A stretch of 49,653 nt of DNA, from sequence record PP069513. One strand, written 5' to 3'. Below the pieces are notes generated by a model. The model had not been told where the DNA came from, ran no database searches, and saw only the letters and a program-made list of their open reading frames with translations. Position numbers and translations under genes: made by a program. Numbering within the stretch: the first letter of the stretch is position 1; every line of letters begins with the position of its first letter. Shown in pieces: positions 24,576 to 49,653 of the stretch. Source of the stretch: Escherichia phage BUCT-XGG-1.

Positions 24576-25169
24576 TTAGGCCACATCTTCCGCAACGCTG
24601 TATGCTGAGAACGTTGCTCCGCCAACTGTTCGATACCCGTATGGCACAGGGATCGGGTTTCCTGCTGCGGTAGTGTTTACTGCGCCGCCGAATGCGTATG
24701 ATGGTTTGTTCTTGCTGCTTTTAACCTCCATCTTTGAGCCGCCTTGCTGCGGTGAAATCATCTGCATTACGCCGCCGAGAACCATCGCGCCGCCCATCAT
24801 GAATGCTGATGTTGCGAATGTACCCATTAGCGCCAGCGATGCGCCGCCAGTGTAGAATGCCGCCACCATCATTACCGCGCCTACAACAATCTGGAACATC
24901 CCGCCGTTTTTTGAGCCTGTAGGGATCGGAATAATGCGAACCTCCTTAGCACAAACGAATGCGGCCTCGTCATGCTGACCTACATTCTTTCCGTCAACGA
25001 ATACTGCGAAGTGCATACGTGAGCCGATCTCACTCTGCATGAACTCCTTAAACCCTTCCACCTGGGAGGATAACGCCCGAATTGCTTCGGGGTATGAGTC
25101 AACGTCGAACTTATGGAAAACACCGAATCGACGGCCAAGAGAACCGGATAGCTTAATTGTTTTTAACAT
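24576..25169 (-). CDS. tail assembly protein (lambda I-like)
   Basis: Position after K; Gly/Ala-rich hydrophobic C-terminal half. Confidence 0.65.
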   Translation of the reverse strand: MLKTIKLSGSLGRRFGVFHKFDVDSYPEAIRALSSQVEGFKEFMQSEIGSRMHFAVFVDGKNVGQHDEAAFVCAKEVRIIPIPTGSKNGGMFQIVVGAVMMVAAFYTGGASLALMGTFATSAFMMGGAMVLGGVMQMISPQQGGSKMEVKSSKNKPSYAFGGAVNTTAAGNPIPVPYGYRTVGGATFSAYSVAEDVA

Positions 25170-27025: not shown

Positions 27026-29941
27026 TTACGCTCCTGCTTTTCCGTTGATGTAATTGTAAACTTCGCCACCCTGGGAACATGATTCCTGAATCATTTGCTT
27101 GAAAATCATTTTCACGCCCTGCTCCATGCCCTTCGGATCGCTACCGTTATTGATGCTAACAGGGATGCTACCAATTGTCACGCCGCCAGCCATGATTGCA
27201 CCGCCACCGCCACCACCGCTTGAAGTTCCACCAACCATCCCACCATTCGCATAACCGCGCATCATTCGATAAAGGTTATCGACTCCAATTCGCTTGGTAG
27301 CTTCCTTGGTCATGACAAATTCACCTTTATGAACTGTGCCCGCTGGCTCATACTTTCCGCCGTCTCCGGTATATCCGCCAGTGGCGAACCATCCTGAGTT
27401 AGCGAAGGAGAACCCCTTACCGCTGCCACCGCCCATCATACCTGACAGTGAGTTAAAGATTACCATCTGCGTTATCATCTTAATAATCTGGCTGATAATA
27501 CTCTTTGCAAAGTCGGCAAAGTTGGCCTGGCCCGTCATCAAGAACTCAGTCATCATGTCAGACAAACCGTTCAGGGCGTTAGCTGCGATGTTGCCTACGT
27601 TGGTGTACATATCCGTTGCGCTTTCTCCGTAGTCTTCAAATGCACGTTGCGCGCCTGCAAGCCAGTCTCTGCGTTTCTCATCCTCGTTGGCGTAATACTC
27701 TTTCTGCTTGTCAATCATTTTCTTGAGAGCTTCATCATCCTGACCGCCGCCCTTAGACATGTAATCCGCTCGGATCTTCTCAAGCTGAATCTGGCGTTCT
27801 GCCTCAAGTGTACCCATGGCGCGCGTGGCGTTAAGGCTTTTGCTCGCTGCGTCAATTTGCATGATGAACTTCATTGATTCGTCATTCAGTTTGTTGATCT
27901 GCTCCTGCTTAACAATCTGATCACCAATCTCTGCTTTCTCCTTCGCTAACGAAAGCACCTTTTGCTGACTGGCTAGCAATGCTTTTTCCTCGTTGGTCAG
28001 CTTGCGCTTACTCTGTGCATCCTGGAGGATTGAAATCTGAGCCTCTGTAGCCCACAAAGCACGGCGCTGTGTTGAGATCTTGTCGTTAATAGACTTGTGA
28101 TCTTCTAAAACTTTAAGCTGAGCTTTGAGAACGTAAAGTTCTTTATCAAGCTGTTCAGTAGCGCCCTTGGTTACTACTGCGCCGCTGCTCTTAGTCTTCT
28201 TCCTGTTCTGCTCTTCAATGGCTTTTGCTTCCTTCTCTACAGCCTCCTTTGTCTCCTTGCTGTATTGCTTCTCCATATCGCGTCGGTTCTTGAGAGCGTT
28301 GATGTAACCCATTTCGCCCTTTTCTACTCGCGCGTTAATCACGTCCAGATCTTTTGCGAGGCTGTCATAGGTGTCTTTGGAGTTCTTAACGATAGTCTGC
28401 TGTTCGTTGAGAATATCCTTACCGAAATCACTCATACCAGGCAGGCTTTGCGTTGCCTTGATTGCTGAGGCAATAAAGCTAGAAATGTACTCGTCACCTT
28501 TGGCGAGAATCATTTTTACCTGAATCACCGTACCGCTAACCACGTCAATTATGAGGTTTAGAGCACCAAGCGTATGATCGCCAACCCACCCCCAGGCGTC
28601 GGATGACCATTTCTTAATGTCGGTCCACATTTTCTCAAGCGGCGTTGCAGTACCTGCAATCTTGCTCATGCGTTCTTCCATGGTGTCAGCAAACAGCTTG
28701 GTCGCCTCCGTCACGGCTTCGGTTTCGCCCTTGGTTTTAACAATCCCGTTGATATAGGTCAGTTGGCCTTTCTCCAGGAAGTTGTATTGCTCATTTAGCT
28801 TCGCAAGCCCTTTCACCGGATCATCTGCAATCTTGCCAAAGTCACTGATAATGTCGCTCGTAGCTCGGCCCGTTGCGGCTGACCATTCAGCGGTGGCGCG
28901 GGTGATATTCCTGATTTGGTCCTGAGTGTACTTACCGCTTTTTGCAAGCTCAGTGGCAATTTCTCGCACAGATCCGATAGTCGCATTGCTGGTGTCTGCA
29001 ATTTTGTTTGCGATCTGGTCAAGGTCCGCCGCGCTCGCCGCTGCAAATCCGCCAGTCTCAATCAGGGCGTTTTTCATGTCTGTGATGGATCGGTAGGAGT
29101 CGTAACCAGCTTTAGCAAGGCCAGCAAGTGCGATACCCATAGCGCCCATACCAACCGTTACCGGATTAAGGTAAGAAAGCAAAACTTTAAACGTATTCCC
29201 AACACCGCCGAACGAATCCTTGATCTGCCCGCCCTGCTGGATTGCAACCAGCCATACAGGCATACCGGAAGCAAGGGAGGTAACAACGTCAGTGATCTGC
29301 ATTGGCAAGATGCGCAGCGCGTTCTTGTACTCGCCAGCGGAAAGGCCAGCCGCATTTGTCGCTACAGTCTGCTTGTTCATCGCTGCAATTAAAGGTGCGG
29401 CCTGATTCGATACGCCAAGCTGTGCCGCCTTCAATTCGAGAAGCTCAGTCTTGGTCATTGTCGCAGCATTGGCTTGTTCTTGCAGTGATTTAAGGAACCT
29501 GTCAGCGTCCTTTGTTGCCGCCTCTTTGGCTTTTGAGTTAGCCATAGCCGCACGGCCTTCTTCGGTCAGCGCCATCTTGGATCGGTTAAGCGCATTGATC
29601 TGAGTTTCAATCATGCTTGACAGATTGAAGAACTCGGCGTCTGGAACTAGGCCTTTGCTCCAGAGGTTATCCAGGTCAACGCTCGCCTTCTGCAACTGGC
29701 GCATTTTTCCGATTGTAGGATCAATGGCTTTCTCTACGTCGGCAAATTCTTTCTTCTGGCGCTTAACCTCGTTGTTGAACTCTTTCATCTTCTGCTTTGC
29801 TACTTGCTCAGCATCAATGAAATTGTCAAAGCTCTTTCCGGCTGTGTTGTTCGCCCTGGATAAGTCATCCAGAGATTTAACCGCCGCATCAACCTGGGAT
29901 ACGTCAACCCCAAGCGATAGCCCTGCAAATTTATCTGTCAT
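27026..29941 (-). CDS. tail tape measure protein
   Basis: 971 aa, Ala/Lys/Glu-rich helical composition, Gly-rich C-terminal part, follows G/GT chaperone. Confidence 0.85.
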
Positions 29942-29977
29942 AAAACCCCCATACGAAAAAAGCGCCCGTAGGCGCTA

Positions 29978-30606
29978 TTATTTTTTGTGCATCTGCTTAA
30001 GCGCTTCCGCTTCCATCACACGCACATCATTTAAGGCCATTTCTTCACAATCTATTTTATAGATTCGAAATAGCATAGGCAAGACATTATAATCAAGCCC
30101 GTAGGCTCCGGCTCCGGCAGATCTCCATTGCGTTTGCATCGCGGTGAATACTTCCCATGACTGGTATGTTTCCTCGTCGAACTGCAATATCTCCGGCTCT
30201 TCGTTGTCGTAGTCTTCACGGGTTAATCCGTATGCCTCAAGCTCTGAGTCGGTGGGCGCTCGCCTGAATAATAGCTCGACCGCCCGTTTTAGTTTTTTAC
30301 TCGGTAGCCAGCCAGCGCTTGAGTGTAGGTTGAGATCAGGCCACCAACAACGGCAGGGTAACTATCAACAAGCTTATTGATGTTTTCATCATTGAACTCG
30401 TCCTCAAGTTCCCACCCGCTAGCCAGGGATTTTACAAACTGAGCGCCAGTCTGTTTTTCTGCATTTTTCAGCGTGGCGTTAAGTTCGGATGACGTTAGCG
30501 CCTTGACAGTGAATGAAAACGAAGCTTCAACGCCGTTCGGCAATACGAATTTAACCGGAAGCGGGAAGTCTGGCAGGCGTTCAGATAGGGTTACTTTAAA
30601 GCTCAT
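29978..30606 (-). CDS. tail assembly chaperone G-T fusion (via -1 frameshift)
   Basis: -1 frame stays open from slippery site 30292-30298 to stop at 29978; lambda G/GT-like arrangement between major tail and tape measure. Confidence 0.5.
30289..30606 (-). CDS. tail assembly chaperone (G-like)
   Basis: 105-aa ORF ending GYRVKN just after AAAAAAC heptamer. Confidence 0.6.
   Translation of the reverse strand: MSFKVTLSERLPDFPLPVKFVLPNGVEASFSFTVKALTSSELNATLKNAEKQTGAQFVKSLASGWELEDEFNDENINKLVDSYPAVVGGLISTYTQALAGYRVKN
30292..30298 (-). other. -1 programmed frameshift slippery heptamer A_AAA_AAC
   Basis: Minus strand GTA AAA AAC TAA: X_XXY_YYZ heptamer in frame with G, 3 nt before its stop. Confidence 0.55.
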
Positions 30607-30650
30607 GGTGTTTTCCTCTTTGTTTGAATTGGTGATATTAAATCACAAAT

Positions 30651-30674
30651 AGAAAAAGGGGGCAATAGCCCCCC
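30651..30674 (-). terminator. intrinsic terminator after major tail gene
   Basis: GGGGG CTATTG CCCCC followed by T5. Confidence 0.55.
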
Positions 30675-30678
30675 TGCA

Positions 30679-31350
30679 TTACTCAGATTCTTTCATGTGC
30701 GTGTATTTGCCATCAAGCGAGATGGTCAGAGTGGTCGTTTCATCTTCGTTCATCACCGTGTTAGGGATGTCATCGAAAGATGGCGTGCCAGAGAAGGTGC
30801 GGATCGGATAGCTTGCCTTCGGTACAAACATTCGCATAGCGCGCGTCTTGCCGTCTTCGTCGTAACCAATCAGAAGCTGCGTGATTGGGTTAGAGTAGTC
30901 GAAGTCGAACGTATACGCGATGGACGTCGCAGATTTAAAGGTCGGGATCTGCTTCTCTCGGTCATCTGATAGACACTGCTTAGTATAGAACTGCTGCTCG
31001 CCACCAGATTTTGCGATGTCGCTCACGCATGGAATCTCAATCCAGCTTTCGATCTTAACGAAAGTGGAAGCGCCGCCAGCGGGGAACTTGTTAAGGTCAG
31101 CCGTGGAAGTGTTCTTGTCGCCTTCAAGCGTGATTGATGCGTTGCTAACCACTTCTTTTACGCGCATTACGCGGTTTTTAAATGCAGCCCATACGCTTTC
31201 CAGCACCAGGACGTAATCGCCTTTCACAATGCCAGTGGTCGATGTAACAGTCGCTATCGGATCATCCGCGTTGCTTACTTTGCTTGCGTCAATTTCAGTG
31301 GCTGCTCGGGTCTGTTCAATAAAGATTTGGGAACCGTTAGGAAGTGCCAT
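30679..31350 (-). CDS. major tail protein
   Basis: 223 aa, immediately upstream of chaperone and tape measure, followed by terminator. Confidence 0.65.
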   Translation of the reverse strand: MALPNGSQIFIEQTRAATEIDASKVSNADDPIATVTSTTGIVKGDYVLVLESVWAAFKNRVMRVKEVVSNASITLEGDKNTSTADLNKFPAGGASTFVKIESWIEIPCVSDIAKSGGEQQFYTKQCLSDDREKQIPTFKSATSIAYTFDFDYSNPITQLLIGYDEDGKTRAMRMFVPKASYPIRTFSGTPSFDDIPNTVMNEDETTTLTISLDGKYTHMKESE

Positions 31351-40215: not shown

Positions 40216-40748
40216 AATTCCCCCAAAATATCCTTAACGGCTTCTTTAAATTCATCAGTAGTCACGGACACCGCGCCAGCAGATACGTTGTTCTGCACGT
40301 TCACTTCTGCAGCCTTGTCGATACCAATGTCTTTGCCTACGAATCCGGCGTTGATAAGGTTGGACGCAGCTAACTGATATTTCTGTTCAATAATTACTGA
40401 GTCGATGAACTCCATTACCTCAGAGAATCCAGGCGACGCGCGCCAGCTTTGGATCGCACCGGAGGTAACGCCGCAATAAAGCTGGAAGCCGTTGAGCGTG
40501 AACACTCGCGGCTTGTGCACTAGGTTCTCAGTGACAACGCCCTGGAAGCTCGCCGTTTCGATTGCCTTAATTGCCTGGTCCTCGGCCCATGAGAAATATT
40601 TAACCGCAAGGTTGAATACAGTCTCAGGCGTCATTGGGTGACGATGGTTCAGGTTGGCAATGTCGCCATACTTTTTATTGTATAGCTCTTTGAAGTTACC
40701 GATTCGAACCTTCTCGTTCGCGTGACTGGTGAAGTTTTCGTCTTTCAT
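40212..40748 (-). CDS. terminase small subunit (putative)
   Basis: 178-aa gene overlapping start of large terminase by 4 nt; first gene after late promoter. Confidence 0.5.
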   Translation of the reverse strand: MKDENFTSHANEKVRIGNFKELYNKKYGDIANLNHRHPMTPETVFNLAVKYFSWAEDQAIKAIETASFQGVVTENLVHKPRVFTLNGFQLYCGVTSGAIQSWRASPGFSEVMEFIDSVIIEQKYQLAASNLINAGFVGKDIGIDKAAEVNVQNNVSAGAVSVTTDEFKEAVKDILGEL

Positions 40749-41452: not shown

Positions 41453-41529
41453 TGGCGTTCAGCGCTGGACTCGAACCAGCAACTAAGACTTAGGAGGTCT
41501 TTGCGTTATCCTGTTAACGCCAGCAGAAC
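41453..41529 (-). tRNA. tRNA-Arg (anticodon CCU)
   Basis: Hand-folded cloverleaf: D stem GCGT/ACGC, anticodon stem AAGAC/GTCTT, loop CU-CCU-AA, T arm GCTGG-TTCGAGT-CCAGC, encoded CCA; acceptor stem has one U.U mismatch. Confidence 0.65.
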
Positions 41530-49016: not shown

Positions 49017-49283
49017 TCTGCGTGATAAGCGTACACGATTCCTACGGTGGGCTTCTTCATCTACACGGCGTAACTTTTATAACGCGTATGCGCTAGAAAC
49101 GTGTGGTGGGAAAATCCTACCAGGCGATCAGGTGATCAGACTTCACCCCATCATTCCCCCCATCAATGAATCATTGCTCAATTCGCAACAATCGAAAACA
49201 TAATTGCAATAGATGCAATATTGCTATCTGCGCAATAGTGAAGTGAATCATTGCAATAGCTGCAACAATCCATAAATCGAACG

Positions 49284-49328
49284 AATAGCACTTTTTGCTA
49301 AATACATAAATCATCATTCTGGTAATGT
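49284..49328 (+). promoter_or_regulatory. box promoter candidate
   Basis: Box AATAGCACTTTTTGCTAAA (49284-49302); TGgTAATGT at 49320-49328 (22-bp gap). Confidence 0.4.
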
Positions 49329-49528
49329 GTATCTCAAGGAAGCAGTGAAGCGAACGCCAAGTAGCTACTTCCCAGAGGTCGAATCGTCCAGATGAAAAAT
49401 GCTGGCGAGTGTTGAGAAAGGGCACGTTGAGTCACTTCCGAATAGGTAAACTCCCAGACACCTTCTCCGGCAGCAAAGTCTGACCGGGTTCCTCGAAAGA
49501 AGTAAATGAAGTAGAAATAAGGTTAGTA

Positions 49529-49573
49529 AATAGCACGAAATGTTAAAACAGCAATAAAGAAAATAAGTATAGT
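49529..49573 (+). promoter_or_regulatory. box promoter candidate reading across window end
   Basis: Box AATAGCACGAAATGTTAAA (49529-49547), TATAGT at 49568-49573 (22-bp gap); no long ORF before window end. Confidence 0.45.
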
Positions 49574-49653
49574 TAGCACATAGAGAACGGAGTGGGAAGT
49601 AAAGAGCCGAACGGCCTCCTGAAGGAACAGGATAACCACTCAAGCAGCGATGA

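Follow-up and report, generated by a model that had tools for sequence, protein, structure and literature searches.

A -1 ribosomal frameshift at the slippery heptamer A_AAA_AAC very probably (we would put it at about 0.9) makes a GT tail assembly chaperone from the start codon of the G-like gene in Escherichia phage BUCT-XGG-1 (PP069513). The window referred to throughout is the whole stretch of DNA that was analyzed, 49,653 nucleotides, and it comes from a Drexlerviridae (T1-like) phage of the genus Nouzillyvirus; the chaperone region is 99.8% identical to that of Escherichia phage vB_EcoM_50EP and 94-99.6% identical to those of other Nouzillyvirus phages, and ~700 further Drexlerviridae records match the region at 60-80%. 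The feature is real, well conserved and ordinary, since arrangements of this kind are known and one is already on record in this phage family.

The G-like Gene and Its Neighborhood

The genes of the region follow the order tail terminator (PF13554), tail tube, PF08748 chaperone, PF08809 (in the -1 frame), tape measure and minor tail protein M (PF05939). The features around the chaperone pair are these:

30679..31350, minus strand: tail tube (major tail) protein gene, the upstream neighbor (PF08813 Phage_tail_3, E 5.2e-48)
30656..30675, minus strand: terminator-like GC-rich hairpin with a T-run, between the tail tube gene and G (pattern scan)
30614..30619, minus strand: Shine-Dalgarno-like AGAGGA, 7 nt 5' of the G start codon (read from the sequence)
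30289..30606, minus strand: G-like tail assembly chaperone gene, 105 aa, with ATG at 30606 and TAA at 30291..30289
29961..29976, minus strand: terminator-like hairpin AGCGCCUACGGGCGCU with a U-run, after the T stop and before the tape measure start (pattern scan)
27026..29941, minus strand: tape measure protein gene, the downstream neighbor, 971 aa (PF06791 TMP_2, E 7e-67; PF09718 Tape_meas_lam_C, E 1.8e-23)

The counterpart of the AGCGCCUACGGGCGCU hairpin is annotated as a terminator in phage Solomon and is also visible in SRT8.

On the minus strand the G ORF closes with GGC TAC CGA GTA AAA AAC TAA and its protein with ...AGYRVKN, a terminus of the form R[V/A/T]KN being present in 13 of 13 aligned database homologues. 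In the Pfam scan, PF08748 (Phage_TAC_4) covers the protein over its full length, residues 1-105 aligning to positions 1-124 of the 124 in the model, and the match passes the gathering threshold (81.5 bits against a cut-off of 21.1, E 7.5e-23). Two PHROG profiles, phrog_569 and phrog_17368, match it as well. Tail assembly chaperones with solved structures include HK97 gp13 (2OB9), YqbN (3KLU) and Rbstp2171 (3FGX); a sequence search of the PDB gave no match at E <= 1.

The Proposed Slip Site and the Extension Behind It

At the end of the G-like gene lie the elements of the proposed frameshift:

30292..30298, minus strand: slippery heptamer A_AAA_AAC, the proposed -1 slip site, in the zero-frame register GT[A AAA AAC], that is, X_XXY_YYZ
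30289..30291, minus strand: zero-frame stop UAA, adjoining the heptamer without a spacer and sharing its bases with the -1 codons CUA and AAA
29978..30292, minus strand: T-like segment in the -1 frame, 104 codons (LKRAVELLFRRAPTD...KQMHKK), followed by TAA at 29980..29978
29978..30606, minus strand: predicted GT fusion, 209 aa, joining 30606..30292 to 30292..29978 (conceptual translation)

A preliminary description of this DNA, made from its letters, had the G-like ORF ending in GTA AAA AAC TAA, took A_AAA_AAC at 30292-30298 for a canonical slippery site, and held that the -1 frame stays open from there to a stop at 29978, just before the tape measure gene. These points were borne out: the ending is there in the minus-strand sequence (30606..30289), the heptamer has the X_XXY_YYZ register in the zero frame, and the 104 codons of the -1 frame lead up to the tape measure ATG at 29941, with 36 nt between the T stop and that ATG. 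The -1 frame is open from as early as 30361 down to the TAA at 29980..29978, so that the two frames share 73 nt upstream of the G stop; A_AAA_AAC is the single heptamer within this overlap.

Heptamers of this kind are common in the window, so that the motif by itself is no proof. AAAAAAC occurs 11 times when both strands are counted, and the 61 long ORFs of the window hold 37 in-frame X_XXY_YYZ heptamers in 13,958 codon positions (~0.27% per codon). Under the codon usage of the window phage (GTA for 26% of Val, AAA for 48% of Lys and AAC for 64% of Asn codons), Val-Lys-Asn would be spelled GTA AAA AAC only ~8% of the time. What sets the site apart is its position: in the whole window it is the sole in-frame heptamer that makes up the final two sense codons of its ORF and is followed by a long startless -1 frame, and ORF ends of this sort are expected by chance ~0.16 times per whole window. 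It is thus the position and not the motif that is special, and conservation in relatives, judged by sequence comparison, puts the site well beyond chance.

Two other heptamers with a long -1 frame were considered and set aside. T_TTG_GGG at 40227..40221 lies 6 nt before the ATG of the next gene (40215), where the two genes overlap by ATGA, and was read as part of that gene's ribosome-binding site; C_CCT_TTC at 49422..49416 sits at the GTG with which the next ORF starts. Neither heptamer is a candidate for recoding.

The -1 extension is itself a recognizable protein. PF08809 (DUF1799) matches it with 52.2 bits against a cut-off of 26 (E 7.5e-14, Pfam scan), T residues 22-101 falling on positions 2-80 of the 80 in the model; the only other match of T at E <= 0.1 was PF12135, which at 13.6 bits against a cut-off of 23 is below threshold and attributable to chance. 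The profile phrog_17368 (213 positions) matches G on 4-107 and the extension on 109-211, so that this PHROG family profile covers first G and then T, in that order. The junction of the predicted fusion joins ...AGYRVKN to LKRAVELLF..., and a search of the protein collection with the conceptual 209-aa fusion returned only three matches, all of them to the T half.

Conservation Among Relatives

Homologous loci were collected by two routes. The first, through the G protein, gave 42 IMG/VR loci; the second, independent of it, went through the T segment and gave 80 Drexlerviridae loci, the query being an alignment of four Drexlerviridae sequences (a query of 15 diverse T segments proved too divergent).

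All 42 loci of the first route have a -1 frame of 99-111 codons after the G stop, and in 36 of them a canonical heptamer directly abuts that stop:

G_GGA_AAC: 22 loci
T_TTA_AAC: 9 loci
A_AAA_AAC: 4 loci
G_GGA_AAG: 1 locus

The codon that holds the first X is varied (ATG, TCG, CTG, CAG, GAG, AAG, GTG, GCG, CGT, GTA, GCA, CTA), and its third base always equals X. The three X positions therefore co-vary, which a simultaneous slip of two tRNAs requires and which is not predicted by slippage of the Asn-tRNA only or of RNA polymerase.

Among the 80 loci of the second route, 57 carry GTA or GCA followed by AAA AAC and then at once by TAA or TGA, and at the heptamer of these 57 the synonymous alternatives (AAG, AAT and the other forms of GTN/GCN) occur zero times. 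No heptamer-bearing locus of either route (36/42 and 57/80) has a heptamer with no directly adjoining stop. Another 20 of the 80, forming one clade, read GCA AAA GTT/GTC/GCC TAA and keep the A_AAA tetramer alone, one codon before the stop; the canonical heptamer is thus not indispensable in Drexlerviridae. The remaining 3/80 have A5 in place of A6, which shifts T into the +1 frame and looks like a homopolymer sequencing error.

These counts also bear on the idea that RNA polymerase slips on the A6 run and adds one A to some transcripts, which would give the junction ...VKK-LKR... instead of ...VKN-LKR.... The site is indeed a homopolymer of six A, and the A5 in three IMG/VR contigs shows that errors arise in the run with some polymerase or with some sequencing chemistry. 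We nevertheless consider this very unlikely, since the homologues with G_GGA_AAC or T_TTA_AAC, whose runs of three are too short to slip, share the same architecture, and since the need for a matching X_XX is the signature of tRNA re-pairing. Six A is also shorter than the runs on which productive polymerase slippage is known in bacteria.

Support for the ribosomal frameshift comes also from nucleotide variability in 64 distinct Drexlerviridae sequences. Inside the A_AAA_AAC group the heptamer bases are invariant, whereas in the four codons that precede it the third positions have entropies of 1.65-1.98 bits, the neighboring synonymous sites being nearly saturated. The comparative data thus show constraint on the heptamer as a nucleotide sequence. 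The heptamer is also the exact point where the phase of codon variability leaves the G frame for the -1 frame, as the mean entropies over the same 64 sequences show:

Upstream of the slip, G frame: position 1, 0.80; position 2, 0.56; position 3, 1.66
Downstream of the slip, -1 frame: position 1, 0.56; position 2, 0.52; position 3, 1.28

This pattern shows that the -1 frame is translated, with protein-coding selection acting on it right from the slip; even for the most distant homologues, the alignment of T segments begins at residue 1, where they share L-[KI]-x-[AV]-[AV].

The GenBank records of the closest relatives imply a different account, in which no recoding takes place and the T ORF has an internal start of its own. 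Within the -1 extension the earliest ATG, GTG or TTG is the TTG at 30187, codon 36, which has GGAG before it, and relatives have short separate ORFs annotated here as a truncated "hypothetical protein" or "tape measure protein" (69 aa from TTG 30187 in vB_EcoM_50EP; 53 aa in PH1062). The DUF1799 match, however, begins at residue 22, upstream of this TTG, and the 35 codons before it, none of them a possible start, show conservation of the encoded protein and vary at the third positions of the -1 frame. Nor is the first possible T-frame start conserved: it moves between codons 42, 18, -25, 8, 23 and 36 according to lineage, the codon-36 TTG being the first candidate in only 1 of 80 loci. Independent initiation cannot reach the stretch before codon 36 in the window phage, and it leaves the invariant heptamer unexplained, so that we regard this account as extremely improbable.

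The anatomy of the site, the protein families on either side of it, its conservation and the coding selection on the -1 frame are established at the level of sequence, and all of them accord with a frameshift at A_AAA_AAC.

A Hairpin Downstream of the Heptamer

The preliminary description had proposed looking for a stimulatory structure downstream by RNA folding, and one local candidate was found:

30254..30285, minus strand: candidate hairpin stimulator, separated from the heptamer by 6 nt (GGGCG-G-UCG, loop of 14 nt, CGA-G-CGCCC)

In a local 36-nt fold it has -15.4 kcal/mol, with z -2.6 against dinucleotide shuffles. Under a second null, in which synonymous codons were resampled 2000 times with the T protein kept, it is marginal, 6% of the samples being equally stable, and folds of the 70-99 nt downstream are unremarkable (z -0.8 to -1.3 in the window, and likewise in most distant homologues). 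A short hairpin is thus present in the window, marginal under the synonymous-codon null, and in the longer folds nothing stands out.

Most A_AAA_AAC Drexlerviridae have GGGCGGUUU/AAACCGCCC as the homologous hairpin, with energies from -16 to -20 kcal/mol and z from -4.8 to -5.8. In the sister genera it is strongly supported: for five sister lineages, 0 of 2000 synonymous-codon samples were as stable as the hairpin observed. Over 34 distinct sequences the pairing is kept in 83.7% of cells and the register is better than all slid registers; compensatory double changes are seen at three hairpin pairs, two of them from the window's lineage (U-A to C-G and U-A to G-C). The hairpin is absent in lineages L048, L065, L078, L083, L086, L110 and L113. 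A long-range hairpin in the heptamer-less clade (GGCGGGCUG...CAGCUUGCC) was also tried and rejected, since it was no better than shuffles (z -0.85 to +0.23).

We read these sequence comparisons as evidence of a genuine accessory hairpin, under selection in some members of the family; the window carries a weaker version, with a plausible candidate role here. No conserved upstream Shine-Dalgarno-like stimulator was evident by eye in the alignment of relatives, and Rfam gave no match at E <= 1 over 29800-30800.

Proposed Mechanism

We infer the slip itself, its efficiency, any role of the hairpin and the chaperone functions, and the order of events would be as follows. Most ribosomes would make the 105-aa G-like protein and end at the UAA (30291..30289). 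A minority would slip back by one base, tRNA-Lys re-pairing from AAA to AAA and tRNA-Asn from AAC to AAA, after which reading in the -1 frame (CUA AAA CGG...) would yield the 209-aa GT, with the DUF1799 domain as its C-terminal half. The hairpin 6 nt downstream may increase the yield. If lambda is taken as the model, the tape measure protein would be coated by G and by the G part of GT, and recruitment of the tail tube protein would fall to the T part; neither G nor GT would remain in the virion.

The percentage of GT is expected to be low because AAC is weakly shifty, one of the codons that favor a shift less than others do when in the A site in E. coli (PMC4066793), and because the abutting stop competes with slippage; the efficiency could be very low. 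In the only bacterial test located, an E. coli experiment with a heptamer and an adjacent stop, as it is summarized in PMC4373837, the stop lowered frameshifting and over-expression of the release factor abolished slippage (Horsfield 1995). The notion that the abutting stop stimulates the -1 shift is not upheld by that summary (PMC4373837). The stop nevertheless looks selected, since the -1 Leu codon could equally be CUU or CUC, or a pyrimidine could come next.

This persistence of the stop raises a question of timing within the frameshift. It is possible, although we think it rather unlikely, that the same product arises by a slip in the E and P sites while the stop is in the A site, with a slow or competing release factor setting the G:GT ratio. 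A stop adjoins the heptamer in every heptamer-bearing homologue (36/42 and 57/80 loci) and looks selected although the -1 Leu codon has stop-free options; the hairpin is dispensable in several lineages; and the release-factor level modulated -1 slippage at a heptamer with a stop in E. coli, according to the account of Horsfield (1995) in PMC4373837. In that same account, however, the stop lowered frameshifting and did not raise it, and the abutting stop could merely make G and the N-terminal part of GT equally long. The hairpin fits instead the classical slip in the P and A sites, which it would stall: its spacing of 6 nt is canonical, and several sister genera show strong selection for it. 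The two models give the same protein, so that sequence cannot tell them apart, and the frameshift at A_AAA_AAC that we favor is common to both.

An extension of this thought is still more tentative, and we think it doubtful: the PF08748/PF08809 family might use a composite signal of X_XXA_AAC with an obligatory abutting stop, and in some lineages the hairpin at +6, in which the stop would be more than the passive close of an ORF and would set the G:GT ratio through the contest between the release factor and slippage of the E/P-site tRNAs. If that were true, the family, including the A_AAA-tetramer clade, would be a natural series that separates P/A-site from E/P-site slippage.

Annotation and Significance

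The practical value of the -1 frameshift reading lies mainly in annotation. The records of SRT8 and BrunoManser split the chaperone pair into two genes, the three Nouzillyvirus records examined do not annotate the frameshift join, and the RefSeq record of ESCO41 leaves the 315-nt T region empty. A corrected Nouzillyvirus annotation would have the 209-aa fusion, joined at 30292.

For the biology of recoding the site is nothing new in kind. The comparative series could nonetheless offer a convenient set of natural variants on which to test what determines low-level frameshift efficiency in E. coli phages, as it contains a co-varying X, a stop that always abuts the heptamer, a hairpin under strong selection in some genera that other genera have lost, and a clade that has no heptamer.

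Comparison With Known Systems

By its architecture the site falls in the G/GT class that Xu, Hendrix and Duda described in 2004, as that work is cited in PMC5009743 and PMC10885494. For lambda itself, the G and GT chaperones are the subject of Levin (1993) and Xu, Hendrix and Duda (2004, 2013, 2014), in the summary given in PMC5009743, and the lambda G:GT ratio is 30:1 (PMC5009743), which the low percentage of GT expected here would resemble. As in lambda, two overlapping ORFs lie between the major tail and tape measure genes, a heptamer ends the first ORF, the second is in the -1 frame without its own start, and the predicted fusion is a low-level product. Unlike lambda, the window has A_AAA_AAC (G_GGA_AAG in lambda), a stop that directly abuts the heptamer, and terminator-like hairpins that flank the G/T pair. 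No Pfam families other than PF08748 and PF08809 were above threshold for G or T in the scan at E <= 0.1, and the names "G-like" and "T-like" therefore refer to position and architecture, not to sequence similarity to lambda G and T. The preliminary description had called this the G/GT arrangement conserved in lambda-like tail modules; synteny, protein families, conservation and the annotated join in Solomon uphold the arrangement, while similarity to lambda G/T at the sequence level was not detected in the Pfam scan.

Outside the phage tails, A_AAA_AAC is the proven low-efficiency -1 shift site of IS1 insA-insB' in E. coli, which has no established stimulator (PMC4066793). The heptamer is identical and the host is the same, but the proteins and the biology are unrelated and there is no homology. 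The E. coli dnaX site, from which gamma and tau are made, resembles the window in its Lys-tRNA-based A_AAA_AAN slippage and in having a downstream hairpin at short spacing; it differs in using AAG, which is far more shift-prone, in having an upstream Shine-Dalgarno stimulator, and in making the shorter product at high efficiency.

The closest precedents are in the T1-like phages, where a chaperone frameshift has been reported for Citrobacter phage Stevie (PMC4319613) and where, in Klebsiella phage Solomon, a frameshift is annotated at the same heptamer (CPT_Solomon_015/016; MT701592; PMC8407766); these published statements are annotation calls. The Solomon record has a joined CDS (QPB09474.1) at GCA AAA AAC TAA, in the context GCA AAA AAC TAA AAC GGG. 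Solomon belongs to the genus Webervirus and the window to Nouzillyvirus, with ~67% nucleotide identity over the region, and Solomon, judged on L002 and the near-identical L110, is without the GGGCGG/CCGCCC hairpin. The genes are nevertheless orthologous Drexlerviridae genes, read there as a joined CDS, and the element in Solomon is the same as the one in the window.

Surroundings of the G/T pair and other heptamers in the window

The tail assembly chaperone gene (G) and the DUF1799 segment in its -1 frame (T) are flanked on both sides by terminator-like GC hairpins with U-runs:

30656-30675, minus strand: terminator-like GC hairpin and U-run, after the tube gene
29961-29976, minus strand: terminator-like GC hairpin and U-run, between T and the tape measure gene

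Two relatives, Solomon (a Klebsiella phage) and SRT8, also have the hairpin upstream of the tape measure gene, and the Solomon record annotates a terminator there. Together, the two hairpins might lower expression in two steps, first between tube and chaperones and then between chaperones and tape measure protein.

Heptamers of slippery form also occur elsewhere:

24906-24912, minus strand: second in-frame A_AAA_AAC, within ORF 24576-25169
49422..49416, minus strand: C_CCT_TTC, right where the second of two small ORFs begins with GTG

At the former, the -1 frame is open for 61 codons and 109 zero-frame codons are left; its occurrence is probably due to chance. The two small ORFs, 49365-49643 and 49171-49425 (both minus strand), lie near the window end and overlap by 61 nt, an overlap that probably reflects start-codon calling rather than recoding.

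The window carries a single tRNA gene:

41453-41529, minus strand: tRNA-Arg, anticodon CCT (reads codon AGG)

The Arg codon two codons past the slip is AGG in several relatives and CGG in the window.

Variation at the slip site among relatives

Three IMG/VR contigs have A5 in place of A6 at the slip site (L074, L084 and L104, each at 880-910), so that G and T are related by a +1 shift of frame. One more indel is present in L084. In all three contigs the cause is probably a sequencing or assembly error in the homopolymer, not a different recoding mode.

One Drexlerviridae clade (20 of the 80 loci) has GCA AAA GTT/GTC/GCC TAA instead of the heptamer, the sole remnant being an A_AAA tetramer one codon upstream of the stop:

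L105-L109, L111, L112, L114-L126 (and L007-L012): heptamer-less loci; example L109:880-910

The -1 DUF1799 frame is still intact in this clade, and a candidate long-range hairpin proved no more stable there than in shuffled sequences.

A distant group carries T_TTA_AAC:

L014-L022, IMG/VR contigs: T_TTA_AAC loci; example L016:1477-1560

The structure downstream, beginning 1 or 11 nt past the heptamer depending on the locus, is very stable (-28 to -35 kcal/mol; z of -2 to -4 against mononucleotide shuffles) and differs from the Drexlerviridae hairpin, the candidate stimulatory element that starts 6 nt downstream of A_AAA_AAC.
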